52,711 nt of DNA, taken from Streptosporangiaceae bacterium. Its GTDB lineage: Bacteria > Actinomycetota > Actinomycetes > Streptosporangiales > Streptosporangiaceae. Location: the NCBI GenBank assembly GCA_035509195.1, contig DATJLT010000164.1, positions 1 through 52,711 of the forward strand, in the 5' to 3' direction. The notes below the pieces were generated by a model. It was not told the origin of the DNA. It was given only the letters and a program-made list of their open reading frames with translations, and made no database searches. The translations under genes were made by a program, and so were the position numbers. Shown here piece after piece: positions 31,737 to 46,573 of this stretch. How positions within the stretch are numbered: the stretch's first letter is position 1; each line of letters begins with the position of its first letter.

Positions 31737-32651
31737 CTAATCGGCCGCGCCTGGCTGCCTGGGTACCCGGTGACTGGTGCTGGTGTGCTTGGGCGCCGTC
31801 GCGGTGGGCGACGCCTGACCTCCGATCGGCCGGCGCCCGGTGACCAGGCCGGCCTCGTTGACAACCGAGGAGGCCGTGATTCCCTTGAAACCCGCGCGGG
31901 CAAGCATCGTCGCCCAGTTGCTGATCGAGACCGGCCGTTCCTGCGCCCTGACCAGGTAGCGGTAGCTGTTCTTGGCGATACGCCACCAGCCGCCGATCCC
32001 CTTCCTGGCCAGCGCACCCATCTTTGACCTGATGATCGCGCGGTCCTGGCTGGTCACGCCTCTGCCGAACATCATGTCGGCGATGATCAGCGTGCCTCCC
32101 GGCTTCAGCCAGTGATAGGCGGCCGCGACCAGCCTGCCCTTGTCGGCGTCACGCAGGTAATGCAGCGCGTAGCTGGTGACGATCACGTTGACGCTCTCGG
32201 CCGGCAGCGATAGCCGTTCGATCGGCGAGGCGAGGCACTCGAACCCGATCATCGCACGCTGCCCGGCTCGCTCCTCAAGCTTGGCGATCATGGTTTCACT
32301 CGCGTCGATCGCGAGTACCCGCGCCCCCCGCTCAGCCAGCGCCAGGCTGAGTTGCCCTGCTCCGCAGCCGATGTCAACGACTTGATCGCCTGGTTCTATG
32401 CTGACGGCGGCGAGAACCGCGGCGCTCACCTTCTCTAGCCCGGACGGTGAACGACGGTCCCAGGCCGTGGTGCGCCTGGCGAGCAGCCGCCGCAACGCCC
32501 GGCCAATCTTAGATCTCCCTAGAATTCCGAACGGCGAGGCGACATCGGCCGAAGTCGCTTGCGAACGCAACGAGGCGTAATAATTGACCGTCTTTGCGGT
32601 CGGCAATTCATTTTCGGCAGATTTCTGTCCGCTCACTGTAGAATCCGTCAT
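31737..32651 (-). CDS. class I SAM-dependent methyltransferase
   Basis: 304 aa with motif I VVDIGCGAGQLSLALA and LKPGGTLIIAD. Confidence 0.8.
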   Translation of the reverse strand: MTDSTVSGQKSAENELPTAKTVNYYASLRSQATSADVASPFGILGRSKIGRALRRLLARRTTAWDRRSPSGLEKVSAAVLAAVSIEPGDQVVDIGCGAGQLSLALAERGARVLAIDASETMIAKLEERAGQRAMIGFECLASPIERLSLPAESVNVIVTSYALHYLRDADKGRLVAAAYHWLKPGGTLIIADMMFGRGVTSQDRAIIRSKMGALARKGIGGWWRIAKNSYRYLVRAQERPVSISNWATMLARAGFKGITASSVVNEAGLVTGRRPIGGQASPTATAPKHTSTSHRVPRQPGAAD

Positions 32652-32799
32652 CGCTCCAGGTTAGCAATTCAGCCCGCCCGCAAAGTGGTATCGAAACCCT
32701 GCGCGGAAACTATTTCCCGTGCCGTCGGGACAATTAGGCCGCAATCCTATTTGACCACCTGTTGTCATTCCATGGACATACTGCCGCGCCCGCCCGGTC

Positions 32800-32948
32800 G
32801 AGCAACATCAGATGTCCACCGATGCTGCTGGTCCGGCTCCGGCTACAGCATCACTGTCCCGGCGATGTCGCGGGAGCAGCATCAACTAGCCACCGTTGTC
32901 GCCGGGTCCTCTTGGCCAGCAGCAACGCATGGCCATCGATGCTGCTCG
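32800..32948 (+). repeat. composite four-hairpin intergenic element, copy C
   Basis: Four units: gagcaacatcag..cgatgctgctgg, ctacagcatcac..ggcgatgtcgcggga, gcagcatcaac..accgttgtcgcc, ccagcagcaacgc..cgatgctgctcg. An ungapped hand alignment to the reverse complement of copy D gives about 115/149 identities. Confidence 0.75.
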
Positions 32949-33065
32949 CCCCGGTGCCAAGCCCAGGCCGCCCGAGCACTGTGGCCCGGCCGCCCTAAAT
33001 GTCCCGATTTTCGCGCTTGGCGCGAACCCAAGCCCCTCCTTGGCCGGGCTGGCCCGCACGCGCCA

Positions 33066-33147
33066 CGGGCGGGACCGGCTCGGGGCGGGGTGCGGGCGGG
33101 GTTCGGCGCCTGCGGGCGGGAGCGGCTCGGGGCGGGGTGCGGGCGGG
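33066..33147 (+). repeat. two 35-bp G-rich direct repeats (period 47 bp) upstream of the biosynthetic operon
   Basis: gggcgggaCcggctcggggcggggtgcgggcgggg (33066-33100) and gggcgggaGcggctcggggcggggtgcgggcgggg (33113-33147), 34/35 identical. Both are flanked by cgccacggg. Confidence 0.8.
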
Positions 33148-33305
33148 GCGCCACGGGTGGTGACGGCGGAGTGGGCACGGAGCGTTGGGGGCGTGATTTT
33201 GGCGTGATGCGGGCGTTTCGCGGCGCTTTCTGACTATTGACTCATGCGGAGCGTTCGGTGAGCATCGGCGGGAAAGCGGGCAGCCGAGCAGCAAGGGAGC
33301 CGCAG

Positions 33306-34574
33306 GTGACCGGACAAACCGAGGCGACCACGGCGTCGGCTCAGTTAGCGATCAACGGCGGCGCCCCGGTGAGGACCGAGCCCTGGCCCACGTATGACAA
33401 GGGCGCGGTGTTCGTCACCAGGCCGGACGAGGATGCGGCGCTTCGCGCCATACGCAGTCACCTGTATTTCAGGTACGACCGCAGGCCGCATGGTGAGACC
33501 GAGTGCGGGCAACTCGAGGCCGAGTTGTGCGCGTTCTTCGGCTGCCGGCATGCCCTGGCGGTGTCGAGCGGTACCGCGGCGCTGGCGCTCTCGATCATGG
33601 CGGCCAGGATTCCCGCGGGGTCACTGGTCGCCTGCCCTGGCTTCACGTTCGCCGCGACGCCGAGCGCGATCATCCTGGCCGGCTGCCAGCCGTTCCTCGT
33701 CGAAGTCGACGAGGACCTGCATCTTGACCTCGCGGACCTGCGCCGCCGCTGGAAGGCGGAGATCAAGGCGATCGTGGTGGTTCACATGCGCGGCTTCGCG
33801 GCCGACATGGCCGCGCTGGCCGAGTTCGCGGCCGAGCACGGCGTGCCCTTGCTCGAGGACGCGGTACCCGCGCTCGGAGCCGAGTTGCATGGTCGCAAGC
33901 TCGGCACGTTCGGCCTCGCCGGCGCGTTCTCGACCCAGTCGGACAAGTCGCTGAACTGCGGTGAAGGCGGATTCCTGCTGACCGACGACGCCGCGCTCTT
34001 CGCCAGGGCCGTCATACTTTCCGGTGCGTACGAAGGGCGGTACCTAAGGCACTTCCCCAACGGGCTTGCGCCCCTCGACACCGACCTTGACCTGCCGCTT
34101 TACAACTTCAGGATGGACGAGATCCGGGCCGCGCTGCTGCGCGGGGAGCTGACCAGGCTCGGGATCAGGCTCGACTGCTTCAGGCGCAACTATGACTATG
34201 TCGCGGCCACGCTGGCTGAGGTGCCCGGCATCATGATCAGGCGGCCAGTGGCCAGCGGCGCCTATCTTGGTGAAGCGTTCATCTTCCGTACGGAGGACAT
34301 CGACCCGAACTGGTTCGCCCGCGCCCTGTGCGCTGAAGGAGTCGACGCGCGCAACCTCGGCGCCGCCGACGACGCCAACATCAGGGTGTACTGGAACTGG
34401 CGCTTCATGTTCCCCGACATGGACGGCAAGGAAATCAGGGACCTGCTGCCAAGCACCACCCGCTACCTGACGCAGGCCGTCGACATCCCGTTGTCCTCGA
34501 CGTTGTCGCAGGCTGACTGTGATGACCTGATCGAAGCGGTGAGGAAGGTCGCCGCGTCGGCCGGATCAGATTAA
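33306..34574 (+). CDS. DegT/DnrJ/EryC1/StrS-family PLP aminotransferase
   Basis: LAINGGAPVR N-terminus. The PLP-lysine segment is FSTQSDKSLNCGEGGFL. Start set at GTG 33306 after AAGGGAG; the track ORF starts at 33237. Confidence 0.85.
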   Translation: MTGQTEATTASAQLAINGGAPVRTEPWPTYDKGAVFVTRPDEDAALRAIRSHLYFRYDRRPHGETECGQLEAELCAFFGCRHALAVSSGTAALALSIMAARIPAGSLVACPGFTFAATPSAIILAGCQPFLVEVDEDLHLDLADLRRRWKAEIKAIVVVHMRGFAADMAALAEFAAEHGVPLLEDAVPALGAELHGRKLGTFGLAGAFSTQSDKSLNCGEGGFLLTDDAALFARAVILSGAYEGRYLRHFPNGLAPLDTDLDLPLYNFRMDEIRAALLRGELTRLGIRLDCFRRNYDYVAATLAEVPGIMIRRPVASGAYLGEAFIFRTEDIDPNWFARALCAEGVDARNLGAADDANIRVYWNWRFMFPDMDGKEIRDLLPSTTRYLTQAVDIPLSSTLSQADCDDLIEAVRKVAASAGSD

Positions 34575-35758
34575 TGACGACCGCGACCGTGCCCGAGCGG
34601 ACGATCCCAAGGCTCGCGCTGGCCGGGGTGTTCGGCGGGCTGTTCGCCGGCTACCTCGGCTTAACCTCGGTGATTCCTGTCCTGCCCGGATTCGTCAGCA
34701 AGCACCTCGGAGCGCCCGACATCATCGTCGGGCTGGCGATCACCGCTACCTCGCTGACGGCCCTGCTGACCAGGCCGCTGGCTGGCCGGCTGGCAGACAC
34801 GAGGGGCCGCAAGAACGTCATGCGCCTTGGCGCGCTTATCGTCGGCGCAGGCGGGCTGCTGTATTTCGCGCCGCTCGGGGTGCCCGGCCTGATCTGCGTG
34901 CGACTGCTTCTCGGCGTGGGCGAGGCGTCGCTGTTCACGGCCGGCGCCGCCTGGACGGTGTCGCTCGCGCCTTACCAGCGGCGTGGTCAGCTCATCGGGC
35001 TTTACGGCGTCAGCATGTGGGGCGGCATCTCGCTGGGGACCCTCTGCGGTGCGGCCATCGGGCACTTCGGCTACGCCGCCGTCTGGGTATTCAGCGCCCT
35101 GGTGCCGTTGATCGGGTTCCTGCTGGTCAGCGCCGTACCAGCCCCGGAGCAGCCGACCGCGCCTGCCAGTCACAGGCACTCGTTCCTGCCACGCCCCGTG
35201 ATCTGGCCAGGGGTCGCGCTCACTTTCGGCGCGGCCGGCTATGCGGGTCTGGCGTCATTTGTCGTGCTGTTCATGAAGAGCCGCGGCATCGGCGACGGCG
35301 TGCTTGTGCTCAGCGAGTTCAGCGCCGTTTACGCCGGCACCAGGCTGGTCATCGGCCACTTTCCCGACAAGTACGGACCAAGGCTGGTCGCCGCCGCGTC
35401 CGGTGCTGGCGAGGCGGCCGGCCTGCTGATCATCGCCTGGAGCCCTGGCCTGCCCGCCGCGCTCATCGGCGGCCTCATCATGGGCGTCGGCTTCTCGCTG
35501 CTGCATCCTTCGCTCGCGCTCATGGTCATGAACCGCACCGACCCTTCTGCCCAGGGAGTCGCGCTCGGCGCCTACACCTCGTTCTGGGACCTTGGCCTCG
35601 GCGTCTGGGGTCCTGCGACCGGCCTGGTCGCGGCGGGCTTCGGCTACCCGGCGGTGTTCCTGACCGGCGCGGCGGGCGGCGCGGTGGCATCGCTGATGGC
35701 CCTGTGGATCGACCGCCCGGCGAGGAAGCCGGCGGCCGCAAGGCCGGCGGTGGCCTGA
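34574..35758 (+). CDS. MFS transporter (12-TM type)
   Basis: 394 aa. MFS motif A is RPLAGRLADTRGRK. The start overlaps the previous stop (TAATG). Confidence 0.85.
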   Translation: MTTATVPERTIPRLALAGVFGGLFAGYLGLTSVIPVLPGFVSKHLGAPDIIVGLAITATSLTALLTRPLAGRLADTRGRKNVMRLGALIVGAGGLLYFAPLGVPGLICVRLLLGVGEASLFTAGAAWTVSLAPYQRRGQLIGLYGVSMWGGISLGTLCGAAIGHFGYAAVWVFSALVPLIGFLLVSAVPAPEQPTAPASHRHSFLPRPVIWPGVALTFGAAGYAGLASFVVLFMKSRGIGDGVLVLSEFSAVYAGTRLVIGHFPDKYGPRLVAAASGAGEAAGLLIIAWSPGLPAALIGGLIMGVGFSLLHPSLALMVMNRTDPSAQGVALGAYTSFWDLGLGVWGPATGLVAAGFGYPAVFLTGAAGGAVASLMALWIDRPARKPAAARPAVA

Positions 35759-35759
35759 C

Positions 35760-36728
35760 GTGGAAGGGCCAGCGAAAGAAGTGGCCGTGCTGTGCATCAC
35801 CGGCTGGTGCCGTAACGGCAGCACGATCATCGGCAACGTGCTGAACGAGGTTCCCGGGATCATGCATGTGGGCGAACTGCATTTCCTCTGGAAGAACGCC
35901 GCGGGCAAAGGTGCCAACAGCAAGTGCGGCTGCGGTGAGTTACTCACCGAATGCCCGTTCTGGTCGGCGAGGATCAGGGAACTGATGCCTGGCACCAGCC
36001 TCAGCACTTACGCGGCCGAGGTCGTCAGGCGTCAGCGCGCGTGCGTGAGGACGAGGCATACCTGGCGGATCTTGCGGCGAGGGCCAGATCAGGCAGGCCG
36101 CAAGACCCACGCCGACCTGATGAGCCGCACTTACCAGGCCGTCGCCGCGGCCAGCGGTGCCCGCGTCATCGTCGACACGTCCAAGATTCCCGGCGAGGCG
36201 GCCCTGCTGCCGCACCTCGACGGGATCACGCCGTACTTCGTCCACCTGGTAAGAGATCCCCGTGCTGTCGCCGAGTCCTGGCGCGAGCCCAAGCAGTACG
36301 TCTACGCGATGTCGGCCGCGAAGAGCACCGCTTACTGGCGCGGCTTCAACCTCGCTGCCCGCGCGATCACGAGGCGTTACCCGAAGCGGTCGCTGACCGT
36401 GCGCTATGAGGACTTCCTCGCCGACCCTCGGGCGCTCATCACCAGGCTGCTCGCGCTCTGCGGGGAGCCAGAAGCGGCCAACCCCGTGCGGGGCCGGGTG
36501 ATCGACCTCGGCATCAACCACACCGTCACGGGCAACCCTGACCGCTTCCATCAGGGACCAACCGAACTGCGCGACACCGACAGCCGCTGGGTCACCGGCC
36601 TGCCGGCCAGGGCAAGGCTGGCCGCGACCGTGCTCGCCTGGCCGCAGTTCCGCCGCTATGGCTACCGCTGCCGCGCCCCTGAAGCGAAAAGATCGCGAAA
36701 GGAGCAGATCGTTGGACACCGGGCTTGA
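35760..36728 (+). CDS. PAPS-dependent sulfotransferase family protein
   Basis: 322 aa. 5'-PSB-like loop ITGWCRNGST and 3'-PB-like HLVRDPRAVAES. GTG start lies 1 nt after the MFS stop. Confidence 0.75.
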   Translation: MEGPAKEVAVLCITGWCRNGSTIIGNVLNEVPGIMHVGELHFLWKNAAGKGANSKCGCGELLTECPFWSARIRELMPGTSLSTYAAEVVRRQRACVRTRHTWRILRRGPDQAGRKTHADLMSRTYQAVAAASGARVIVDTSKIPGEAALLPHLDGITPYFVHLVRDPRAVAESWREPKQYVYAMSAAKSTAYWRGFNLAARAITRRYPKRSLTVRYEDFLADPRALITRLLALCGEPEAANPVRGRVIDLGINHTVTGNPDRFHQGPTELRDTDSRWVTGLPARARLAATVLAWPQFRRYGYRCRAPEAKRSRKEQIVGHRA

Positions 36729-37545
36729 CGGCAAGTGCGCTCTCGTCGCCGGGGGGACGAGCGGCCTCGGGCTGGCAGCGGCCAGGGAACTGGCCGCGGA
36801 AGGCGCGCACGTCGCGATCTGCGGGCGCGACGAGGAGAGACTGGCCGCCGCCGAGCGCGCGATCAAGGCAGCGGCGCGCGGCCGGGTACTAGCGGCAAGA
36901 ACCGACATCACCGACCGGGCTGCCGCCGCGCAGTGGACAGGCGAAGTCGCCGCGGACTTCGGCGCCCTGCACATCGTGCTGATCAGCGGCGGCAGCCCTC
37001 CCTTCGGCCCGGCGACCGCGTTCGGCCCGGATGCTTATGCCCACGCGATCGAGCAGGTGCTGATCCCGGCTGTCGCGCTGACCGAGGCGGCGCTACCGCA
37101 CCTGAAGAGGGCAGGCTGGGGGCGCCTGCTCTACATCGCGTCGGAAACGGCCTGCGCGCCGGTACCTGAACTCGCGCTTTCCGGCGTGACCAGGGCCGCG
37201 CTCGTGAGGTTCGCCCAGGCTGTCGCCGCGGAGACCGGGCGTGACGGCATCACCGCCAACGTCCTCGCCCCTGGCAACACCAGGACGCCGCCAATGGAAC
37301 GACTCGCCGCCCGTCTGGCTGAGCGAGAAGGCACCGGCATGGAAACTCAGCTCGACGCTATGGGCCGGCACAACGCGATCGGGCGGCTGGCGAGGCCAGA
37401 GGAGGTCGCCGCGATGGTCACGTTCCTGGCCAGCGAACGCGCCTCCTACCTCACCGGCGGCGTGCACCTGATCGATGGCGGCGCCAGCGTGATGGGACCA
37501 GAACTGCCGCACCTGGCCCTGATGAGGGCGGAGAAGAGCAAATGA
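36712..37545 (+). CDS. SDR-fold oxidoreductase with non-canonical active-site positions
   Basis: GGTSGLG cofactor motif and an IASE serine segment. The usual YxxxK position reads S-G-V-T-R. TTG 36712 is preceded by GAAAGGAG and overlaps the sulfotransferase 3' end by 17 nt. Confidence 0.75.
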   Translation: MDTGLDGKCALVAGGTSGLGLAAARELAAEGAHVAICGRDEERLAAAERAIKAAARGRVLAARTDITDRAAAAQWTGEVAADFGALHIVLISGGSPPFGPATAFGPDAYAHAIEQVLIPAVALTEAALPHLKRAGWGRLLYIASETACAPVPELALSGVTRAALVRFAQAVAAETGRDGITANVLAPGNTRTPPMERLAARLAEREGTGMETQLDAMGRHNAIGRLARPEEVAAMVTFLASERASYLTGGVHLIDGGASVMGPELPHLALMRAEKSK

Positions 37546-37558
37546 GAGCGGAGAAAAG

Positions 37559-38371
37559 ATGACCTTCACCGAGCAGGACGTCGCCGACTTCTTCGACCAG
37601 ACCACGCAGACCTATCTCAGCTTCTGGGACAGCGAAGGCGTGCTGCACACCGGCTACTTCGATGGTCCTGGCGACGAGGACTACCACGCGGCCGCGACGA
37701 GAACATCCGACCTGCTCGCAGCCGAAGCGGGCATCGACGCGACCGCGAAGGTGCTCGACGTCGGCTGCGGCTGCGGCAACTTCCTCTTCGACCTCGCCGC
37801 GAAGACAGGCGCCGAGGGCACGGGCCTTGATCTCTCGATCGAGCGCATCAGCTTCGCCAGGCAAAGGCAAGACGGCGCCAAGATCGAGTTCGTGCACGGC
37901 TCGGCCACGAACATGCCCTTCGACGACGCCACCTTCACCCACGTCGTCAGCCAGGACGCCCTCTTCCTCATCCCTGACAAGCCGCGCAGCCACGCCGAGA
38001 TCTACCGGGTGCTGCGCCCGGGAGGCCTGCTCGCGTTCTCAGATTTCCTTCAGCCAAGGAAAGAGATCGGCCAGCGAGCCCGCCAGCACGTCTACGACCG
38101 CGTCCGCTGGAACGACGGCTACTCGCTGATCGGATACCAGGAGGCACTCGCGGGCGCGGGCTTCGAGATCTTGCTGGCCCGCAGCCTCCGCGATCACATC
38201 GGCCAGACCTACCGCGTGCTCGGGCAGATGGCCAGTGACCGGGCGGGTACCACGGACGACACCGCCGCGCGTGACTGGATGCTCGCGTTCGCCGCGTCCT
38301 GCGGCGAGATCCAGCTCGCGATCGCCGAAGGCGAATTCGGCTGGGGAATCTTCATCGCACGCAAACCATGA
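37559..38371 (+). CDS. class I SAM-dependent methyltransferase
   Basis: 270 aa. Motif I VLDVGCGCGNFLFDLA and LRPGGLLAFSD. Confidence 0.85.
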   Translation: MTFTEQDVADFFDQTTQTYLSFWDSEGVLHTGYFDGPGDEDYHAAATRTSDLLAAEAGIDATAKVLDVGCGCGNFLFDLAAKTGAEGTGLDLSIERISFARQRQDGAKIEFVHGSATNMPFDDATFTHVVSQDALFLIPDKPRSHAEIYRVLRPGGLLAFSDFLQPRKEIGQRARQHVYDRVRWNDGYSLIGYQEALAGAGFEILLARSLRDHIGQTYRVLGQMASDRAGTTDDTAARDWMLAFAASCGEIQLAIAEGEFGWGIFIARKP

Positions 38372-39264
38372 GGAGCGGGGAAATGCAGCAAGCCGAAGGC
38401 ATCAAGGCCACCCTGGCCGACGTCGTCGCGGCGCGGAGCAGCGAACTGCTTCCCGGCCGCAGGTTCGTGAACGAGTGCCTGGAGCACGGCAAGGACGCGT
38501 GCGTTGACTACGACGTGACGATCACGGACTCGCTGAGCAGCTCACGCCGCAAGCCGCGCTACCCGGCACGCAACATGCTGAAGGTTGTGGACCTGTCCAG
38601 GGACCCGCGCAGTTACTACTGGCACGAGAGCCCCGCGCAGCCCGGCGATCCCGAGGTTGCCGGAGCCGGCCTGCGTCCAGAGGCGGCTAATACCTCGGGC
38701 ATGTCTCCCGTGCCTGACCTGCTCACCACGACCGCCTGGGTGCAGGTGCCTGACGGCCTGTGGGAAGACCCTCCGACGTTCGAGTCCTTCCTCAACTACC
38801 GCCTCATCGTCCGGCTGTGCACGGCGGAGAACGTCACGATCATCACCGGGGAAAGCGGGCTGCTCGGATTGCCTGGCATCGCACGGCTGTCCTCAGCCGG
38901 CGAACCCGGCTCGGCCATCCTCTCGGCCTGCAACGAGGTCGAACAGGTCGGCTGCACCGCCGACGGCCTGATCATCAACCCGGCCGACTACTACAAGCTG
39001 CTCGGCACCGGCCGCCTGATGCAGAACGTCGAGGAAAACGGCGTCTTCATCGTCAGGACCAGGCTCGTGGAGCAGGGCACGGCGATCGTGGGTGACTTCG
39101 GGCACGGCGCGCAGCTTTTCGACGCCGGGCGCTCGGTCATCAAGTTCGAAGAGCCGCCGCCAGGCACGTTCGCCCATCCGGGCGCAGGCCTCGCGCTCAA
39201 GGCCGAGATCTACGAACGGGTCGTCGTCAACCTGCCGGCTACGTTCTTCGTCGTGTCGGTCTAG
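38368..39264 (+). CDS. HK97-fold major-capsid-like protein; candidate Family-3 (natural-product) encapsulin shell protein
   Basis: 298 aa. The C-terminal half matches the pattern I recall for HK97-family capsid proteins (PF05065): LIINPADYYKL...GVFIVRTRLVEQGTAIVGDFGHGAQLFDAGRSVIKF...LALKAEIYERVVVNLPATFFVV. ATG 38368 overlaps the methyltransferase stop (ATGA). An alternative ATG at 38383 follows GAGGAG. The stop is 2 nt before the next gene. No portal, terminase, protease or tail genes occur in the window. Confidence 0.75.
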   Translation: MRSGEMQQAEGIKATLADVVAARSSELLPGRRFVNECLEHGKDACVDYDVTITDSLSSSRRKPRYPARNMLKVVDLSRDPRSYYWHESPAQPGDPEVAGAGLRPEAANTSGMSPVPDLLTTTAWVQVPDGLWEDPPTFESFLNYRLIVRLCTAENVTIITGESGLLGLPGIARLSSAGEPGSAILSACNEVEQVGCTADGLIINPADYYKLLGTGRLMQNVEENGVFIVRTRLVEQGTAIVGDFGHGAQLFDAGRSVIKFEEPPPGTFAHPGAGLALKAEIYERVVVNLPATFFVVSV

Positions 39265-39266
39265 CC

Positions 39267-40532
39267 GTGCCCGGTAAAGACCCTGAGGTGCTTGTCGTCG
39301 GCGCGGGCGCGGCCGGCCTGTTCGGCGCTTACTTCCTTCGCCAGCGCGGCCTCAACGTCACCGTGGTCGACGCCGGCCAGGTCGGCGGCCCGCAGTCCTG
39401 CTCGGCTGGCAACACCGGCTTCGTCGGCAGTCAGGGCGCCGCGCCTCTCGCCGAGCCTGGCGTGCTGCGCCAGGGGTTCCGCTGGCTGGCCAGCTACCGC
39501 AGCCCGTTCTCTATCACGCCAAGGCCATCGCCTGCCTTGATCTCCTGGCTGTTGCGGTTCAGCCGGCTGTGCAATGAGGCGGACGCCAAGCGCTGCTTCG
39601 CCGTGCTCGTCGAGCAGAAACGACGCAGCCTGCGGATACTTCGAGAGGTGTGCGCGTCTGGCGAGCTCGCCGACTGCCTCATCGAGCCCGGCATGGTCGT
39701 GGCCTACAAGACAAAGATCGCTTTCGACCAAGCGTGCACCGCCCTACCAGAAGCCGTGAGCCGCGGCGTGCCGCTCAGTGTCCTTGACGCCGCCGAACTT
39801 AAGGCCCTGGCGCCAGAGGTGACGTTCGACATCCACGGCGCCTTGTTCAACGCGGAGGGCGCGGCCCTCGCGGTCCCTGCCTTCCTGACCGGGTTCTCGC
39901 GCCTGCTCGAGTCCATGGGCGTACGCATCGTGCCAGGCGCACGGGTGACGGGTTTCCGCGTCGCCGGCCGGCGGGTCAGCCTGGTACGGACGACTCAGGG
40001 CGACTTCCGCCCTGGCGAGGTCGTGATAGCGGCGGGCGCCTGGTCGGCGCGATGCGCGGCGATGCTCGGCCTGCGTCTGCCCCTCCAGCCTGCCAGGGGC
40101 TATACCGTCACGGTCCCGAGCACCGGCGGCGCCCCCGTACTGCCAGTGCTGCTTTCCGAAGGGAAGGTCGCACTGATGCCGCTCGGTGACCGGCTGCGGT
40201 TCGGCGGCACGCTGCAGCTTGCCGGGCTCAGCACGAGTACCTCGCGGCGCCGGGTCGATGGAATCGTGTCGACCGTGCGGTCATACCTGCCAGACCTCAC
40301 GGTCGGCGCCGACCGCGAGGTCTGGACCGGGCTGCGGCCTTGCACGCCTGACAGCATCCCGCTCATCGGGAGGGCCGGGGCGTACGGGAACGTCTTCGTC
40401 GCCTGCGGGCACGGCTACATCGGCCTCGGACTCGCCCCGGCGGGCGGCCGGCTACTCGCTCAGCTCATGACCGGTGAGGAGCCCGAGGTCGATCCTTCTC
40501 CGTTCCAGCCGGGGCGGTTCAGCTATGGGTGA
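39267..40532 (+). CDS. FAD-dependent oxidoreductase (D-amino-acid dehydrogenase/oxidase family)
   Basis: 421 aa. VLVVGAGAAGLFGAYFL dinucleotide fold. The C-terminal GHGYIGLGLAPAGGRLLAQLMTGEEP is typical of DAO-family enzymes. Confidence 0.8.
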   Translation: MPGKDPEVLVVGAGAAGLFGAYFLRQRGLNVTVVDAGQVGGPQSCSAGNTGFVGSQGAAPLAEPGVLRQGFRWLASYRSPFSITPRPSPALISWLLRFSRLCNEADAKRCFAVLVEQKRRSLRILREVCASGELADCLIEPGMVVAYKTKIAFDQACTALPEAVSRGVPLSVLDAAELKALAPEVTFDIHGALFNAEGAALAVPAFLTGFSRLLESMGVRIVPGARVTGFRVAGRRVSLVRTTQGDFRPGEVVIAAGAWSARCAAMLGLRLPLQPARGYTVTVPSTGGAPVLPVLLSEGKVALMPLGDRLRFGGTLQLAGLSTSTSRRRVDGIVSTVRSYLPDLTVGADREVWTGLRPCTPDSIPLIGRAGAYGNVFVACGHGYIGLGLAPAGGRLLAQLMTGEEPEVDPSPFQPGRFSYG

Positions 40533-41226
40533 GGTCCCGATCGGGGTGCTCTGCCTGGAGACCGCGTTCACCAAGATCCCCGGCCATATCAGGAACCCGG
40601 TGACGTTCGGGTTCCCTGTCATCTACCAGGTGGTGAGCGGGGCGACACCTGAACGGGTGGTGACCCAGGGTGATCCGGCGCTGCTCGAGCCGTTCATCAA
40701 GGCGGCAAAGGACCTGACCGCGCAGGGGGCCGCGGCCATAACCACCGGCTGCGGGTTTCTCGTGCTTTTCCAGCGGGAACTCGCCGCCGCGGTCAACGTT
40801 CCGGTTTACACGTCGAGCCTGATCCAGCTTCCGATGGTCGCGGCGATGCTGAGGCCGGGCCAGCAGGTCGGGCTGCTGGTCGCGAAGAAGGAGGCGCTGA
40901 CCGGGGCGCACCTGGCCGCAGTCGGGGCGGCCGGGCTGCCCGTACGGGTCGCCGGGATGGCCGGGCAGCCAGAGTTCCGCGAGGTCATCCTCGAGGGGCG
41001 GCGGACATCACTTGACGTTGCCAGGCTGCGGGGCGAGGTGCTCGCCGAAGCCGGCCGGCTCGCGGGCCCCGACCTCGGGGCTGTGGTCATCGAGTGCACT
41101 GACCTGGTGCCGTTCGCACCGGACATTCAGGAACTGCTCCAAGTGCCCGTGTTCGACATCGTGACGCTGACGCGCATGGTGCATGAGAGCCTGACCAGAA
41201 AGGCGGTAAAGACCAATGTCTGCTGA
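40525..41226 (+). CDS. Asp/Glu/hydantoin-racemase-family protein
   Basis: MGEVPIGVLCLET..., with two Cys-containing segments ITTGCGFL and VVIECTDLVPF as in this racemase/isomerase family. ATG 40525 overlaps the preceding stop by 8 nt. Confidence 0.7.
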   Translation: MGEVPIGVLCLETAFTKIPGHIRNPVTFGFPVIYQVVSGATPERVVTQGDPALLEPFIKAAKDLTAQGAAAITTGCGFLVLFQRELAAAVNVPVYTSSLIQLPMVAAMLRPGQQVGLLVAKKEALTGAHLAAVGAAGLPVRVAGMAGQPEFREVILEGRRTSLDVARLRGEVLAEAGRLAGPDLGAVVIECTDLVPFAPDIQELLQVPVFDIVTLTRMVHESLTRKAVKTNVC

Positions 41227-42814
41227 GGTGCGCGACCCCTACCGTGAGCACGGCTGGTGGCGCGACGAGACCTTCCTTGATGACCTGCGGCGTTTTGCCA
41301 GGGAGACACCGGACCGGCCGGCGCTGATCAGCCACCGCGACGGCGAGGACCGGGTGGTCAGCTACGCCGAGCTGGCCAGCCTTACCGAGAACTGCGCGAT
41401 CCGGCTGGCCGAGCTTGGGGTGGGGCCAGGCGATGTCGTGGCCGTCCAGTTGCCTAACTGGTGGGAACTGCTGCCGCTCGGGCTCGCCTGCGCCAGGATC
41501 GGCGCGATCTTCTCGCCCTTGCTGATCATTTACCGCAGGCGGGAACTCGACTTCGTGCTACGGCTCACCGAAGCGAAGGTCGTGGTGACGATGGGGGAGT
41601 GGGAGGGGGTCAGGCTCGGCGACGTAGTCGCCGAGCTTGCCGCCGGGTTGCCAAGCCCGCCGCACGTCCTCGTGGCCGGCCAGCCGGGTGCCCGGTTCTT
41701 TGAGGACTTCTTCTTCGGCTCGCCTGCCGTGGCAGGCGAAGTGCCGCCAGGTGCCGAACTCGGTCCTGACGACCCGTTCCTCCTGCTGTTCACCTCCGGC
41801 ACGACCGGCGAGTCGAAAGGCGTGCTGCACAGCCAGAACACCCTGTTCGCCTCGGCCAGCGCCTACGCCGACGTCCTTGGCCAGGACGCGGACACGGTCG
41901 CGTTCATCAGCCACGTCGCGACCCACTACTCGGGATTCGTGACCGGGATGCTGACTTCCCTGCTGCGCGGCGGGTCGACGCTCATACTCGGGGTCTGGGA
42001 CGCGCCGACGTTCGTGGAGGTCGCGCCCCGCTACGGGGCCACGACGTTCTACGGCGCGCCCAACTTCCTCGTTGACCTGCTGGCGGCGCAGCAGGCCAGT
42101 CCGGGGGATCTCAGTTCCCTGCGGTACGTGATCAGCGGGTCGGCGCCGATCCCGCCGCTGGTGCTCGAGCGGATCAGGGCTGTTTTTGACGCGAAGGTGG
42201 TCGCGCTCTGGGGAATGACCGAGAACGGCGCTACGACGATCACCAGGCCGGACGACCCGCCCGACTGGGCCGAGCACAGCGACGGCAGCCCGCTGGGCGG
42301 CATGGAGATCCGCATCGATACCTCGGTCGTGCCTGCCAGCGAAGACGGCTCAGGCCTGTTCCTGGTGCGCGGGCCGAGCCAGTGTCTCGGCTACTTCAAG
42401 CGCGAGGCGCTGTACGCGTCCTGCCTGGACGCCGACGGCTGGTTCGACACCGGCGACCTGGCCCGCCCAGACGGGCGCGGCGGGATCAGGATCACCGGCC
42501 GTATCAAGGACGTCATCGTCGCCAAGGCCATCAACGTGCCGGTCACCGAGGTAGAAGACGCCCTGCTCAGGCATCCTCTGGTCAAAGACGCCGCGGTCGT
42601 CGGGGTGCCGACCGAATCTGACGAGCTCGTCTGCGCGGTCGTTGTGCCTCGCGGCGAGGCGCCCTCGCTCGACTCGCTGCGCGAGCACCTCACCGGCGAG
42701 GGCTTCAGCGATTTGTTCCTGCCAGGCCGTCTCGAATTGCTCGGCGAGCTGCCGAGAACCGTCACCGGCAAGGTGCGCAAGGTGGAACTGCGCGCGCAGT
42801 TCGCCGGAACGTGA
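41216..42814 (+). CDS. AMP-dependent synthetase/ligase (ANL superfamily, acyl/aryl-CoA-ligase type)
   Basis: 532 aa. The AMP-binding motif is LLFTSGTTGESKGV, with a C-terminal GKVRK. The start overlaps the racemase stop by 11 nt. Confidence 0.85.
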   Translation: MSAEVRDPYREHGWWRDETFLDDLRRFARETPDRPALISHRDGEDRVVSYAELASLTENCAIRLAELGVGPGDVVAVQLPNWWELLPLGLACARIGAIFSPLLIIYRRRELDFVLRLTEAKVVVTMGEWEGVRLGDVVAELAAGLPSPPHVLVAGQPGARFFEDFFFGSPAVAGEVPPGAELGPDDPFLLLFTSGTTGESKGVLHSQNTLFASASAYADVLGQDADTVAFISHVATHYSGFVTGMLTSLLRGGSTLILGVWDAPTFVEVAPRYGATTFYGAPNFLVDLLAAQQASPGDLSSLRYVISGSAPIPPLVLERIRAVFDAKVVALWGMTENGATTITRPDDPPDWAEHSDGSPLGGMEIRIDTSVVPASEDGSGLFLVRGPSQCLGYFKREALYASCLDADGWFDTGDLARPDGRGGIRITGRIKDVIVAKAINVPVTEVEDALLRHPLVKDAAVVGVPTESDELVCAVVVPRGEAPSLDSLREHLTGEGFSDLFLPGRLELLGELPRTVTGKVRKVELRAQFAGT

Positions 42815-44226
42815 GGCCAGGGCAGCGGATCGTGCTCGCGTTCCTGTGCGCGGGCGTGTTCCTCGCTGCCCTCGACTTCTACATCGTGAGCATCGCGATC
42901 CCCGGCATGCTGCGCAGCTTCCCCGGCACGGGGATTACCGGCATTTCCTGGGTCATTGATGGCTATACGGTGACCTACACCGCGGCATTGTTGCCTGCGG
43001 GCGGGCTCGCCGACCGGTACGGCCGCCGCCGGGTGTTTCTTGGCGGCTTAATGATCTTTACCTTGGCCGCACTCGGGTGCGCGATTGCTCCCTCGGCCGG
43101 GGTGCTTGTGTGGGCCAGGTTCTTGCAGGGCGTCGGCGGCGGCACGATCACGCCGATCGCGCTCACGCTGATCGTGCCGAGGTTCCCTGCCGAGCGGCGC
43201 GGCTCGGCGGTCGGGCTCTGGGCGGCGACCCAGTCCGCCGCCGTCGCGGCCGGGCCGTCCGTTGGCGGGTTCCTTGTGTCGGCGGCTGGCTGGAGGGCGG
43301 TGTTCTTGCTGCAGGTGCCGGTCGGGCTGGTCGCGATCCTCGGCGCGGTGTTCGCGCTGCGCGGGGAGGCGCCGTCCGCACCCCGCGGCGCGCCTGGCGG
43401 GCATACGCTGCCTGACCTGCTCGGCGTGGGCCTGCTTGGCGGCGCGGTCGGGCTGTTCGCCCTGGCAGTTGTCGAGGCTAAGGCCTGGGGCGTGCTGAGC
43501 CTGCGCACTGACGTCGCTTTCTGCTGCGGCCTGGGACTCGGGGTGCTGTTCGTGCTGCGCACCGGCAGGGTCAAGGTGCCGGTCGTTGACCTCGGGCTGC
43601 TTCGGATCCGCGCCGTGCGGCTGGTCAATGTCGCGATGGTTCTGGCCGGCCTGGTGATGTTCGCGCTGCCGTTCGGGCTGGTGCTCTTTCTCATCGGGGT
43701 CTGGAGCTACTCGCCAGCTCGCGCGGGCCTGGCGATCACGCCAGGCCCGGTCGTCCAGGCGGCGGCCGCGTTGCTCGCGGCCAGAATCACGAACCGGTTT
43801 GGTGCCCGCGCCGCCGCCGTTCCGGGAGCCGTCCTGCTAGCGGCCGGCCTCTCGATGCTCGCACTCGGCGCGAGCGCCTTGCCGCGATACCCGGAGGTCG
43901 TGCTGCCGGCGATCGTGGCGACCAGTACCGGGCTCGGGTTCCTGATCACCTCGCTGAGTTCGGTCATCGTCGGCGCGGTCCCCGCCGCGGCGCTCGCGTC
44001 TGGTACTGCCCTGTCGGTCACCGCCCGTGCCATCGGCGCGATCATCAGCCTCTCCGCGTTCGCGCTGCTGCTCGCCGCCGTGCCCGGCGGCACCCGTGCC
44101 GCCAGCGCTTACCATCTCGCCTGGATCGTCATGTCGGCGATCGCGCTCGTACTAGTCGGCGTCACCTGGTCCGCCCGCAGCGGAATCGGTCCGCACCTGA
44201 TTGTGACCGCCTTACGGCAGGAATGA
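42811..44226 (+). CDS. MFS transporter (14-TM, drug:H+ antiporter-2 type)
   Basis: 471 aa. Motif A is GGLADRYGRRRVFLGGL. The GTGA overlap with the ligase stop suggests translational coupling. Confidence 0.85.
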   Translation: MRPGQRIVLAFLCAGVFLAALDFYIVSIAIPGMLRSFPGTGITGISWVIDGYTVTYTAALLPAGGLADRYGRRRVFLGGLMIFTLAALGCAIAPSAGVLVWARFLQGVGGGTITPIALTLIVPRFPAERRGSAVGLWAATQSAAVAAGPSVGGFLVSAAGWRAVFLLQVPVGLVAILGAVFALRGEAPSAPRGAPGGHTLPDLLGVGLLGGAVGLFALAVVEAKAWGVLSLRTDVAFCCGLGLGVLFVLRTGRVKVPVVDLGLLRIRAVRLVNVAMVLAGLVMFALPFGLVLFLIGVWSYSPARAGLAITPGPVVQAAAALLAARITNRFGARAAAVPGAVLLAAGLSMLALGASALPRYPEVVLPAIVATSTGLGFLITSLSSVIVGAVPAAALASGTALSVTARAIGAIISLSAFALLLAAVPGGTRAASAYHLAWIVMSAIALVLVGVTWSARSGIGPHLIVTALRQE

Positions 44227-44269: not shown

Positions 44270-45676
44270 ATGGAACGAATGAGTACCCTTGATGCGGGGT
44301 TTTACTTCGTCGAGCATCGCAACGTGCCGATGCATATCGGTTCGCTGGCGGTATTCGAGGGCCCCGCGCCTTCCTACGAAGACCTGCTCACGCTGTTCGC
44401 GGCCAGGCTGCCTGCCGTGCCGAGGTACCGGCAGGTGGTGCGGACGGCGCCGCTGCAGATCTTCCGGCCTTACTGGTCGGATGACACCGAGTTCGAGCTC
44501 AGCTATCACCTGCGCCACGCCGCCGTGCCGCCGCCAGGCGGCCCGGCCGAACTGCGCGCGCTCGCGAGCCGGGTGTTCGCGCAGCGGCTCGACCGTGAGC
44601 GGCCGCTGTGGGAAGCTTGGTTCCTCGAAGGGCTGGCAGGCGGTCGCTGGGCGATCTTGTCGAAGGTGCATCACAGCATGGTGGACGGGGTCGGCGGCTC
44701 CGACTTGATGGCGGAGCTTTTCGACCTCACCCCTGAACCACGCCCGCAGCAGCCCGAGCCCTGGCAGCCGCGACCGGGCCCCTCGCCAGCCGAACTGGTC
44801 ATCGGCGGTGCGGTAGACACGATCACGTGGCCGGTCAGGCAGGTCGCCGAGCTGCCAGGGCTTCTCGGGGCGCGGCTGCCGACGTCGGCGGATCTCGCCG
44901 GCTTCGGACGTGGCCTCACCGGCAGCGCGCGCAGGCTGGCCGAGCCCTCGGCATCCTCGCTGAACGGGCCGATCAGCCCGCACCGCAGGTGGACGTGGAC
45001 GACGGCGAAGCTAACGCACATCAGGCGGGTCAGGCAGGCGTTCGGCGTGACCGTGAACGATGTCGTTCTTGCCATGACCACGGCCGGGTTCCGCGATTTG
45101 CTGAAGACCAGGGGCGAACTGAGCAGTGACCTGGTCGTCCGTTCGCTCGTGCCGGTGTCGCTGCGCGGCCCTGACGACCGGCAGCCGGTCAGCAACCGCA
45201 TCTCGGCGATCCTGGTCAACCTCCCCGTGGGGGTGGCCGATCCGGTGGCCAGGCTCAAGTCGCTGCACAGCCAGATGAGCGACCTGAAGCGGACCAGGCA
45301 GGCCGTCGGCGCCGAGTTCCTCACCGGCCTGCTCGGCTTCGCCGCTCCTTCGCTGCTGGCCCTCGGCTCGCGGGCCGCGTTCAGGATCCCGCAGCCGCTG
45401 GTGCAGACCGTGACCACGAACGTTCCGGGACCCCAGTTCCCCCTCTACCTGCTCGGCCGCAAGCTGACCGAGCTATACCCGTATGTGCCGATCGGCGACA
45501 ACCTCCGCATCGGCGTGGCCATCTTCTCCTACCTGGAAACCTTCGCGTTCGGCGTGACTGCCGACTACCGCGCCATGACAGAAGCCGACCTTGAGGTGCT
45601 GACGGCCGGTTTCGACCGTGGCCTGGCCGAGCTGAAGAAGCGCTCAGGCCCCGCGTCGTCCCGCCGCGAAGCCTGA
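44270..45676 (+). CDS. wax-ester synthase / diacylglycerol acyltransferase (WS/DGAT)
   Basis: 468 aa with the HHSMVDGVGG active-site motif (HHxxxDG) and a typical N-terminus MSTLDAGFYFVE. Confidence 0.85.
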   Translation: MERMSTLDAGFYFVEHRNVPMHIGSLAVFEGPAPSYEDLLTLFAARLPAVPRYRQVVRTAPLQIFRPYWSDDTEFELSYHLRHAAVPPPGGPAELRALASRVFAQRLDRERPLWEAWFLEGLAGGRWAILSKVHHSMVDGVGGSDLMAELFDLTPEPRPQQPEPWQPRPGPSPAELVIGGAVDTITWPVRQVAELPGLLGARLPTSADLAGFGRGLTGSARRLAEPSASSLNGPISPHRRWTWTTAKLTHIRRVRQAFGVTVNDVVLAMTTAGFRDLLKTRGELSSDLVVRSLVPVSLRGPDDRQPVSNRISAILVNLPVGVADPVARLKSLHSQMSDLKRTRQAVGAEFLTGLLGFAAPSLLALGSRAAFRIPQPLVQTVTTNVPGPQFPLYLLGRKLTELYPYVPIGDNLRIGVAIFSYLETFAFGVTADYRAMTEADLEVLTAGFDRGLAELKKRSGPASSRREA

Positions 45677-45725
45677 GCGCGGCACGCCGACTCCCCGATG
45701 CCGGCGCAACGCGGGGGAGCCAGGA

Positions 45726-45875: not shown

Positions 45876-45994
45876 CCGGGCCGCGCGGCCCGGCGGCCGG
45901 GGATCGGCCAGGATAAGAAGGCGACAAATTGACCGGGCGCGCATAAAGTGAACGGGGCCATTGCGCGGGTTCCGTTAGCTGGAAGGATTTCGCG

Positions 45995-46522: not shown

Positions 46523-46573
46523 TCAGGGAAACGCGGCCAGCGGCAAGCCGGGGTCGCGTGATTTACTCCGGGA

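Follow-up and report, generated by a model that had tools for sequence, protein, structure and literature searches.

A described class of predicted shell operons

The encapsulins that make up Families 1 and 2 (such as those of T. maritima and EncA of M. xanthus; in Family 2, the cysteine desulfurase and terpene cyclase systems) are HK97-fold proteins whose genes adjoin those of presumed cargo enzymes, and for which shells have been proven and targeting peptides or domains defined. Family 3 proteins are predicted shells. A 2024 review (PMC11664910) notes that it 'lacks experimental validation' and is without known targeting peptides; in the literature we searched there was no demonstration of Family 3 shell formation or cargo loading, and nothing newer than that review. 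The class that concerns us here was catalogued by Andreas & Giessen in 2021 (PMC8346489) as the 'Micromonospora/Nocardia' cluster type, with an operon in Fig. S9 carrying an SDR, a methyltransferase and 'AA' enzymes. Their supplement places PF01041 and PF01266 in a neighbour-Pfam list beside the N. brasiliensis node, though the list may be another node's. No Family 3 cluster has a known product except that for chloromyxamide in Myxococcus sp. MCy10608 (Gorges et al. 2018, as cited in the same paper). So far as the citing paper describes it, an AMP-dependent ligase and a SAM methyltransferase accompany the encapsulin gene there, and the cluster depends on NRPS/PKS and LysW/AmCP components and makes chlorinated peptides.

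Our locus lies in a 52,711-nucleotide stretch of DNA (the window) from a member of the Streptosporangiaceae (contig DATJLT010000164.1), an uncultured actinobacterium from a wetland. We put at roughly 0.8 the probability that positions 33306-44226 are a Family 3 encapsulin operon of the Micromonospora/Nocardia class, whose shell confines part of a small-molecule pathway. Like the catalogued examples, the operon carries an HK97-fold shell gene of about 291 codons in a non-NRPS/PKS setting, and it shares with them the sulfotransferase-SDR pair, the methyltransferase, the aminotransferase, the amino-acid oxidase, the racemase and the gene order. It departs from them in its host and in an adenylating ligase and a DHA2 exporter, joined by overlapping codons, which the window's lineage alone appends. 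The AMP-dependent ligase and SAM methyltransferase recall the chloromyxamide cluster, but profile searches found no PKS/NRPS domains in the operon or its flanks, and no LysW/AmCP components of the chloromyxamide type were found there either.

An operon of ten genes

Profile searches with Pfam and NCBIfam place ten ORFs in the region, all open and all on one strand. The original prediction spoke of eleven genes, but its own list has ten, each in a family that the searches matched. The predicted features are as follows.

33237..33265, +, promoter-like element TTGACT-17 nt-GAGCAT, marked by conservation in relatives
33293-33299, +, Shine-Dalgarno AAGGGAG, 3' of the promoter-like element
33306..34574, +, DegT/DnrJ/EryC1-family PLP aminotransferase, 422 aa, GTG start (PF01041, 192 bits)
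34574..35758, +, MFS transporter 1, 394 aa, PRK05122/YdeA-like, 12-TM-type (PF07690, 152 bits)
35760..36728, +, PAPS-type sulfotransferase, 322 aa, core shell-gene partner (PF13469, Sulfotransfer_3)
36712..37545, +, atypical SDR-fold protein, 277 aa, TTG start, core partner (PF13561/PF00106)
37559..38371, +, class I SAM methyltransferase, 270 aa, optional member (PF08241/PF13649)
38368..39264, +, Family 3 encapsulin shell protein, 298 aa from ATG 38368 (NF041188, HK97-fold model)
39267..40532, +, DAO-family FAD oxidoreductase, DadA-like, 421 aa (PF01266, 203 bits)
40525..41226, +, Asp/Glu-racemase-superfamily protein, PRK07475 subfamily, 233 aa (NF005679)
41216..42814, +, stand-alone ANL adenylating enzyme / CoA ligase, 532 aa (PF00501 + PF13193)
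42811..44226, +, DHA2-type MFS efflux transporter, 471 aa (PF07690; TIGR00711)

The nine junctions run, 5' to 3', TAATG (a 1-nt overlap), a 1-nt gap, a 17-nt overlap, a 13-nt gap, ATGA, a 2-nt gap, an 8-nt overlap, an 11-nt overlap and GTGA; re-derived, all were identical to those first proposed, the methyltransferase-encapsulin junction hinging on which encapsulin start is chosen. Nine successive same-strand junctions of -17 to +13 nt are much tighter than chance. Such spacing is a classical signature of a single operon, as these genes would appear to be, and together with the domain content it supports the tightly coupled, non-PKS/NRPS small-molecule operon originally envisaged. Upstream, a consensus scan found no canonical sigma-70 site. 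The TTGACT-17-GAGCAT element is the sole block of the 650-nt spacer conserved in two relatives (L002, L017), and we infer that it may be the promoter.

The shell gene

Calling the sixth gene 'capsid-like' missed that it is, judged by profile and predicted structure, a Family 3 ('natural product') encapsulin, the feature around which the operon is organized. It scores 309 bits against NF041188 (cut-off 180). An AF2 model (pLDDT 83.8) finds the HK97 prohead as its top Foldseek match (E 7e-17, TM 0.63-0.72), followed by encapsulins. Its likeness to Families 1 and 2 lies in the fold (TM about 0.5-0.6); sequence similarity to them is negligible, at 10-16% identity in structural alignments, and no solved encapsulin is as close to the protein as gp5 of phage HK97 is. 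There are 518 homologues, which NCBI names 'family 3 encapsulin nanocompartment shell protein'. This identification puts the operon in the class catalogued in 2021; it is a further example of a Family 3 class known from genes alone, not a new cryptic pathway.

Translation more probably begins at ATG 38383 (293 aa) than at ATG 38368, as AGGAG lies 7 nt upstream and the start agrees with the 293-aa gene call (P0001) and with orthologue N-termini. The junction with the methyltransferase gene would then be an 11-nt gap, not ATGA. As for cargo, a weak candidate tag is the C-terminal tail of about 20 residues, ending in KDTYT, on type A SDRs; it has diverged within the window's clade.

Conservation and limits of the cluster

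Had the homologues been scattered among related genomes, the idea of one pathway would have suffered. They are syntenic. Among cultured bacteria, Streptosporangium amethystogenes has aminotransferase, MFS transporter, sulfotransferase, SDR, methyltransferase, encapsulin, flavoprotein and racemase in the same order, Nocardia sp. NPDC052566 has the same series without the transporter and methyltransferase, and about 12 further loci match in gene order, which is also met in many MAGs. The window's encapsulin is 70-72% identical to those of Nocardia and Streptosporangium members, and its gene keeps its place between the same enzymes in more than 30 loci from many genera. Within the same family the cluster occurs in 20 of 151 genomes and 19 of 90 genera, a patchy spread typical of accessory gene clusters.

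From the loci examined in the window's bacterial family we defined operon types A, A', B and C. The usual partners of the shell gene in the first three are a PAPS-type sulfotransferase and an atypical SDR, which invariably adjoin, and mostly a DegT aminotransferase as well; type C has neither sulfotransferase nor atypical SDR. To this set the window's operon class adds the DadA-like flavoprotein and the two-thiol racemase-family enzyme. Other members come and go. MFS transporter 1 is missing from L002, L026 and L043, while a similar gene adjoins type B and type C encapsulin loci as well; the methyltransferase is missing from the Nocardia operons L026 and L042. The ANL ligase directly 3' of the racemase, and the DHA2 transporter 3' of the ligase, are found only in the window, L002, L017 and L018, with ligase homologues (45-50% identity) at other positions in type A' and type B loci. 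By this distribution, the ligase in that position and the exporter are an add-on specific to the window's lineage, not part of the core.

Two flanking genes had been left as possible members: a divergent methyltransferase (31737..32651) and a WS/DGAT (44270..45676) that begins 43 nt after the last operon gene. Conservation of the two is confined to close relatives with general synteny (the SerRS side). In Nocardia, Streptosporangium and other genera the cluster lacks both, so the two genes probably lie outside it. A PMT_2 glycosyltransferase and Lnt paralogues are also neighbours in the window.

The enzymes

The enzyme set first listed (aminotransferase, PAPS-type sulfotransferase, methyltransferase, DAO/racemase, adenylating ligase and two MFS transporters) holds up, with substrate assignments that all rest on sub-threshold family matches. 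The sulfotransferase, the aminotransferase and the racemase look active from their catalytic motifs. In the sulfotransferase, the 5'-PSB TGWxRxGST and 3'-PB VRDPRA motifs are invariant (27/27), and the same genome encodes an APS kinase. The aminotransferase keeps its PLP lysine motif, STQSDKS, in all 18 orthologues, and its best solved relatives are the Kdo8N transaminase 5k8b and 2-deoxy-scyllo-inosose aminotransferases. The racemase-family protein (267 bits against NF005679, cut-off 231) has two thiols, Cys76 (GCGF) and Cys191 (ECTD), invariant in 14/14; it has no PDB sequence match, and the fold of its AF2 model (pLDDT 90.7) is no nearer to any one of the Asp, Glu, hydantoin and allantoin racemases and arylmalonate decarboxylase than to the others.

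Below the cut-offs, the flavoprotein reaches 245 bits against D-amino-acid dehydrogenase NF001933, with glycine, sarcosine and amino-acid oxidases or deaminases as its solved relatives; the ligase is cyclohexanecarboxylate-CoA-ligase-like (398 bits), nearest among solved structures to the aryl-acid adenylases DhbE and salicylate-AMP ligase; and the methyltransferase has full-length matches to DVU_1556-type and sarcosine/dimethylglycine N-methyltransferases. MFS transporter 1 scores 237 bits against NF003477, below cut-off, and the DHA2 transporter 196 bits against the EmrB family TIGR00711 (cut-off 230), with 12 strong peaks in a crude hydropathy count where 14 transmembrane segments had been proposed.

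The SDR is the odd one out. Aligned with the canonical sorbose reductase 3ai3, it has S157 and R161 where the catalytic Tyr and Lys are expected (S-x-x-x-R), a substitution kept in 27/27 encapsulin-linked copies and in 141 of the 150 best representatives, the query excluded. Its best PDB match, 2z1n (APE0912, 136 bits), has Ser...Arg too; this archaeal structural-genomics protein has no known encapsulin context and lacks the extra C-terminal tail of the type A SDRs. We take 2z1n, of PRK08339-type, to belong to CDD cd05344, 'BKR-like SDR-like', said to have an imperfect catalytic tetrad. The SDR-fold protein probably still binds NAD(P), with classical Tyr/Lys chemistry out of its reach. The reduction step of the original prediction is weakened by this loss in all orthologues examined, and the published scheme, in which the SDR reduces and the sulfotransferase sulfates, is left without canonical support.

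What the shell might confine

We picture a single mRNA whose transcription starts at the conserved TTGACT-17-GAGCAT element. A reactive imino or 2-oxo intermediate would arise from an amino acid, or from a related alpha-substituted acid, through the action of the racemase-family enzyme and the flavoprotein, DegT would move an amino group onto or off a carbonyl, and the sulfotransferase would pass sulfate from PAPS to a hydroxyl as an ester. Tailoring or activation of the product would fall to methyltransferase and ligase, and its export to the MFS pumps. The shell would assemble into a small icosahedral compartment enclosing some of the enzymes together with a reactive carbonyl, imine or sulfate-ester intermediate. 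The product is probably small, amino-acid-derived and sulfated. Sulfation, as first proposed, finds its enzyme in the PAPS-type sulfotransferase; the end product need not keep its sulfate, which could instead serve as a leaving group.

That second use of sulfate is unlikely. A hydroxyl would be activated and the sulfate expelled to give an alkene, an aziridine/azetidine-type ring or another electrophile, which the shell would confine; the Tyr-less, Arg-bearing SDR would handle the sulfate ester, and the product would carry no sulfate. The aziridine of azinomycin and vazabitide is made by sulfation and then elimination, and the CMPA unit of chloromyxamide, from another Family 3 cluster, resembles a chloride-opened aziridine. 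Constant adjacency of sulfotransferase and SDR fits, as does Ser/Arg for Tyr/Lys, a pair better suited to an anionic substrate than to a carbonyl; a DegT that installs an amine is mostly present too. The sulfotransferase's single PDB sequence match, and sole solved relative, is 4gox, the activating sulfotransferase of an olefin synthase (CurM-type). Both have the PAPS-dependent fold, but the CurM domain sits in a PKS module and acts on an ACP-bound beta-hydroxyacyl chain, whereas ours is free-standing, with no PKS, ACP or thioesterase. At E 4e-5 and 26 bits the likeness is too weak for function to be transferred from sequence, and it may mirror sparse PDB coverage of PF13469. Most members of the large S...R SDR subfamily, moreover, have no tie to encapsulins, so sulfate need not figure in the chemistry of this subfamily. 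Nor are proteins of the AziU2/U3 type, the known aziridine formers, among the families matched in the operon.

Flavoprotein, racemase and aminotransferase could equally serve catabolism or stereo-inversion. As an account of the whole operon, a catabolic or detoxifying compartment is improbable. An MFS transporter would import a D- or unusual amino acid, to be degraded or stereo-inverted by racemase, DadA-like dehydrogenase, transaminase and CoA ligase, while the shell protected the cell from imine or 2-oxo acid and, should the flavoprotein be an oxidase, from peroxide as well. These enzymes do make a typical catabolic set, the DadA-like match reaches 245 bits, MFS transporter 1 resembles sugar/metabolite transporters of no assigned direction, and encapsulins of Families 1 and 2 mostly serve stress/detoxification or storage (PMC8346489, PMC11664910). 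Yet two of the enzymes, the sulfotransferase with its demand for PAPS and the SAM methyltransferase, are of the anabolic tailoring kind and unusual in catabolism; the operon has no catabolic-type regulator; sister types keep sulfotransferase, SDR and shell without the flavoprotein-racemase pair; and the second transporter falls in the drug-efflux DHA2 family.

Could the operon be an amino-sugar or envelope-glycan cassette, in which DegT, SDR, sulfotransferase and methyltransferase modify an envelope sugar or inositol-like polyol, and the capsid-like gene is unrelated or structural? DegT's nearest solved relatives act on Kdo, inosose and NDP-sugars, and the PMT_2 and Lnt genes are close by. We consider it very improbable: the conserved unit has no nucleotidyltransferase, 4,6-dehydratase, glycosyltransferase or flippase, the SDR is of classical length (about 260 aa) and not of the extended NDP-sugar type, and neither Nocardia nor Streptosporangium shows synteny between envelope genes and operon. 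A decaying phage major capsid gene stranded in a metabolic operon would account for HK97 gp5 capsids being the nearest solved proteins by sequence and for the PF05065 Phage_capsid match in some homologues, but such a prophage remnant is effectively refuted by synteny and conservation, the gene having an intact frame (60-88% conserved, 64 invariant columns across 30 aligned sequences), a fixed position among the same enzymes, a score above the curated encapsulin cut-off, and no phage genes (no terminase, portal, protease or integrase) near it in the flanks examined within the 52.7-kb window.

An operon assembled around a shell gene

The heart of the window is a run of ten open frames, named here by Pfam and NCBIfam assignment. 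The original prediction spoke of eleven genes; its family names agree with ours for all ten, and a script recovered every junction it had described (a 1-nt overlap in TAATG, a 1-nt gap, a 17-nt overlap, a 13-nt gap, ATGA, a 2-nt gap, overlaps of 8 and 11 nt, and GTGA). From this spacing alone we infer that the ten genes are co-transcribed. A further 43 nt separate the last of them from a WS/DGAT gene. The contig, taken whole at 52.7 kb and about 68% G+C, comes from a 5.0-Mb genome in 404 contigs, and the only sequencing runs that contain the stretch are four wetland metagenome DNA runs, with no RNA run among them.

Features of the locus
33237-33265: TTGACT-17-GAGCAT block upstream of the operon
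33306-44226 (+): ten-gene operon, in order DegT-type aminotransferase (DegT), MFS transporter (MFS1, 34574-35758), Sulfotransfer_3 sulfotransferase (ST), SDR-fold protein (SDR), class I methyltransferase (MT), shell protein (Enc), DAO-family flavoprotein (DAO), racemase-family protein (Race), ANL ligase (ANL) and DHA2-type MFS transporter (MFS2)
38383 (+): probable ATG start of the shell gene
31737-32651: divergent methyltransferase, 5' of the operon
44270-45676: WS/DGAT, 3' of the operon

The start at ATG 38383 is favored because AGGAG lies 7 nt upstream of it and because it agrees with the 293-aa gene call and the N termini of orthologues. Condensation, KS, AT and carrier-protein domains are absent from 33306-44226 and from the flanking genes, and the ANL enzyme stands free of a PP-binding domain, so the claim that this is an operon without PKS or NRPS holds.

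The sixth gene encodes a capsid-like protein that drew no hit in the Pfam search of the operon. It matches NF041188, the model for the family 3 encapsulin nanocompartment shell protein, over positions 1-266 of 266 with 309.1 bits, where the curated cut-off is 180; the same search had no match in the 14 genomes used as controls. A model computed with AlphaFold2 from 30 homologues (pLDDT 83.8, pTM 0.80) has the HK97 fold, and its N-terminal elements (helices 16-25 and 29-43, strand 45-48) form the helix-helix-strand extension given for Family 3 predictions in a 2024 review (PMC11664910). Foldseek placed HK97 prohead I/II at the head of the PDB matches (E 7e-17, TM 0.63-0.72) with Family 1 encapsulins next, and the only solved relatives found by sequence in the PDB were entries for HK97 gp5. 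Neither the sequence nor the fold search found a solved Family 3 structure in the PDB copy used. At E<=1e-10 the protein collection yields 518 homologues; every named one, whether from Nocardia, Streptosporangium, Planomonospora or a Streptosporangiaceae MAG, is called family 3 encapsulin nanocompartment shell protein. The gene overlaps the methyltransferase gene before it, lies 2 nt from DAO after it, and sits in the same biosynthetic context in more than 30 loci.

A class already on the books

Family 3, the 'Natural Product Encapsulins', was defined by Andreas and Giessen (Nat Commun 2021, PMC8346489), who described 132 systems in six operon classes, sulfotransferase-SDR pairs being common among them. 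The legend of their Fig. S9 gives the class 'Micromonospora and Nocardia' an SDR, a methyltransferase, amino-acid ('AA') enzymes and no NRPS. Their sequence similarity network, drawn at a threshold of 55% identity, has a 42-node cluster labeled Micromonospora/Nocardia type; Nocardia brasiliensis O3I_019165 (291 aa) is a node, tied to that label by file order alone, and the list of neighboring Pfam families that follows it, likewise linked to the node by file order alone, includes DegT and DAO (PMC8346489). The window's shell is 70-72% identical to those of a Nocardia sp., Streptosporangium and Planomonospora, above the network threshold. The content of the operon (a sulfotransferase and SDR pair, a methyltransferase, amino-acid-acting enzymes, and no NRPS, PKS or AmCP) fits the class as far as the legend describes it. 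We put the probability that this is a Family 3 encapsulin operon of the Micromonospora/Nocardia class at about 0.9.

The reading of the locus as a small-molecule operon outside the PKS and NRPS world thus survives. Its novelty does not: the class was catalogued in 2021, with the encapsulin as its defining element, and our locus adds another example. What it contributes is the set of comparative points it opens and the cultured carriers identified (non-pathogenic Streptosporangium and Planomonospora with the identical operon type); the locus itself leaves the picture of Family 3 unchanged. That picture is of one large encapsulin family without experimental validation, and no targeting signal is known for it (PMC11664910). 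Our literature search on Family 3 found nothing later than that review. If Family 3 proteins do enclose biosynthetic enzymes in shells, natural-product chemistry would have its first dedicated protein compartments.

What travels with the shell

The original prediction had proposed a comparison with clusters that contain homologues of the capsid-like gene. Across some 40 loci gene order proved to be conserved in relatives, Nocardia and Streptosporangium included. Close MAG relatives, with shells 74-86% identical, have the type A order in common, and in three of their loci (L002, L017 and L018) ANL-MFS2 directly follows the racemase gene, as in the window. Cultured strains have shorter versions: Nocardia sp. 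NPDC052566 has DegT-ST-SDR-Enc-DAO-Race and Streptosporangium amethystogenes DegT-MFS-ST-SDR-MT-Enc-DAO-Race; in both, ANL, MFS2, the divergent methyltransferase and WS/DGAT are all absent nearby. Among the loci compared, WS/DGAT is found in the window and L002 only. The original prediction had left the membership of the last two genes undecided; their distribution indicates that they track genome synteny and not the cluster. ANL-MFS2 joined to the racemase gene looks specific to the window's lineage, and DAO-Race is the mark of the published Micromonospora/Nocardia class. As judged from these loci, the recurrent core, and the part of interest, is not the whole cluster; it is the sulfotransferase, the atypical SDR-fold protein and the shell, usually with DegT.

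Of the 151 genomes in the window's GTDB family, 20 have the shell gene above cut-off, which amounts to 19 of 90 genera, and the gene occurs there in at least four operon architectures.

Operon architectures around the shell gene
Type A: DegT-(MFS1)-ST-SDR-MT-Enc-DAO-Race, after SerRS-divergent MT in the close MAG relatives
Type A': DegT-ST-SDR-MT-Enc, no DAO/Race; ANL ligases and, for example, a BBE-type oxidase or LanB-N-like protein
Type B: shell about 30% identical, then ST-SDR-MFS1-like; divergent ANL upstream
Type C: carboxylic-acid-reductase-like A-T-R enzyme, aldo-keto reductase, shell about 45% identical, MFS1-like transporter, ThDP enzyme

At least four architectures in one family, often two to a genome, suggest that the shell gene serves as a portable module, combined anew with various sets of enzymes. 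Four genomes carry two Family 3 loci of different architecture (L019/L018 in G002, L020/L021 in G003, L022/L023 in G004 and L031/L043 in G045), combining, for example, type A with type A', B or C. One of these loci, L021 (contig G003:C702, 2151-12343), is itself rearranged: a 93-aa encapsulin fragment is followed by Race-DAO-MT-ST-DegT on the opposite strand, and then come DegT fragments, ST, SDR and an intact encapsulin gene. This layout suggests either that part of the operon was duplicated in inverted orientation or that the MAG assembly is chimeric here. In long-read-derived MAGs, DegT and MFS2 are each split into two frames (L018 4696-5926 and 14433-15801; L022 5719-6937), probably through sequencing frameshifts and not as pseudogenes.

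An SDR without its tyrosine

The SDR-fold protein is where the published chemistry runs into difficulty. The classical SDR tetrad Asn-Ser-Tyr-Lys (Y-x-x-x-K) is absent from it: in a HMMER alignment with the canonical NADPH-sorbose reductase 3ai3, Ser157 stands at the catalytic Tyr and Arg161 at the Lys, and the NNAG motif reads SGGS. The dinucleotide motif TGxxxGxG is kept (GGTSGLG, residues 14-20) and PF00106/PF13561 match at full length. APE0912 (2z1n), the best solved relative, has the same Ser...Arg, as do 27 of 27 encapsulin-linked copies, including those of type B, where the shell is only about 30% identical, and 141 of the 150 best 50%-cluster representatives. This retention argues that the S...R proteins are a large, distinct SDR subfamily and not a decayed gene. 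The loss of Tyr and Lys goes unmentioned in the main text of the 2021 paper, whose step 'SDR reduces, sulfotransferase sulfates' thus has no support from canonical residues. A canonical ketoreductase this 'SDR' is not, and the pathways sketched in print should be reconsidered accordingly.

The remaining enzymes look competent from their motifs. The 5'-PSB (TGW(C/L)RxGST) and 3'-PB (VRDPRA) motifs of the sulfotransferase are invariant in 27 of 27 copies, and the genome encodes an APS kinase, a source of PAPS; the sulfotransferase's sole solved relative is the activating sulfotransferase of an olefin synthase (4gox, E 4e-5). DegT (PF01041, 192 bits) keeps its Schiff-base lysine motif STQSDKSLN in 18 of 18. 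The racemase-family protein has Cys76 and Cys191, one per half-domain, invariant in 14 of 14; it belongs, above cut-off, to PRK07475, which is annotated as hypothetical. A PDB sequence search with it gave no match. Its confident model confirms the fold and lies at equal distance from arylmalonate decarboxylase and the racemases for Asp, Glu, hydantoin and allantoin, so its substrate cannot be inferred from the fold. The flavoprotein is DadA-like, below cut-off, with glycine, sarcosine and amino-acid oxidases as solved relatives, and ANL, which lacks a carrier domain, is similar to cyclohexanecarboxylate-CoA ligase and to aryl-acid adenylases. Of the enzyme set first proposed, then, transamination, racemase chemistry and sulfation keep their motifs, and the reduction step loses its canonical residues.

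A proposed pathway and its rivals

Starting from what was observed (the family to which the shell belongs, the class of the operon, a core that is conserved and catalytic motifs that are intact), we consider the following general scheme likely. A single mRNA would start from the TTGACT-17-GAGCAT block at 33237-33265. The racemase-family enzyme and the flavoprotein would convert an amino acid to an imino or 2-oxo acid, DegT would transaminate a carbonyl, and the sulfotransferase would use PAPS to sulfate a hydroxyl. Next could come methylation and activation of a carboxylate, both optional, and then export by an MFS transporter, the shell enclosing some of the enzymes and a reactive intermediate. 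Any one specific chemistry is doubtful at best.

The main rival for the chemistry, an unlikely one, takes the sulfate as a leaving group rather than a decoration. Aziridine chemistry by sulfate elimination is the analogy; our literature search for it found no paper. A more daring variant, which we regard as a long shot, makes the sulfotransferase and the Tyr-less, Arg-bearing SDR the encapsulated pair of most Family 3 systems, installing and then expelling sulfate to yield a strongly electrophilic intermediate. If so, the electrophile would be an alkene, aziridine or similar, formed inside the shell in place of the sulfated alcohol put forward in 2021. On this view Family 3 encapsulins would act as vessels dedicated to 'warhead-forming' reactions, and the product would pass straight to the MFS1-like protein that recurs beside the shell gene and in Mesorhizobium is fused to it. 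That the operon is catabolic is improbable, and that it tailors glycans is highly improbable. A prophage remnant is exceedingly so: terminase, portal, protease, tail and integrase genes are absent around the shell gene, a family search found no phage families in the operon or flanks, and the flanking genes are SerRS, methyltransferase, WS/DGAT, SDR, Lnt paralogues and a PMT_2 glycosyltransferase.

Cargo tails, exporters and the edges of the locus

A search of the operon enzymes for cargo signals returned only weak, clade-limited tails: the C terminus of type A SDR-fold proteins and variable basic tails on ST and DAO. In types A and A' the SDR-fold proteins continue for about 20 residues beyond the usual DGG end; the added stretch contains PH(L/F) and closes with (K/R)DT(Y/F)(T/A), as in L019, L023, L025, L027, L040, L044 and L047. 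This extension (...PHL...KDTYT), a candidate shell-targeting tail, is missing in type B, and the window's clade has a diverged version of it (...MRAEKSK).

Transporters 43-47% identical to MFS1 adjoin the shell gene or its partners in type C (L020, L029, L030, L034 and L041) and type B (L031 and L032), so that, with the window, three operon types that otherwise differ share this neighbor. In the literature, shells from Mesorhizobium are reported as fusions with MFS-like helices. Adjacency and fusion together hint that shell and exporter are functionally connected.

Upstream of the operon, the TTGACT-17-GAGCAT block is the only conserved part of the 650-nt spacer in comparison with L002 and L017; a sigma-70 consensus scan found no promoter, and terminators occur at chance level only. 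Two 36-nt G-rich direct repeats (33066-33101 and 33113-33148, 35 of 36 positions identical) precede the operon by 160-240 nt. None of the 12 related loci checked has them, so they are not a conserved regulatory site.

The seryl-tRNA synthetase gene adjoining the cluster (30178/30475-31710) was considered as a cluster-linked resistance copy; it is the sole serS in the genome (426 bits, other matches about 20 bits) and so housekeeping. Two inverted 168-nt arms (32787-32954 and 45720-45887, 76% complementary) enclose everything from DegT through WS/DGAT, each made of hairpin units of about 40 nt that are also directly repeated (families D1 and D2). We do not take them as evidence of a mobile unit: relatives with the same operon have no WS/DGAT inside the bracket, and the arms look like copies of an intergenic foldback repeat that is dispersed, rather than ends peculiar to the cluster. 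Farther out, a 211-aa, Ser/Ala/Arg-rich frame at 46519-47154 (-) has no family match and is found in relatives by tblastn; it is probably the shadow of the forward-strand ORF at 46574-47170.
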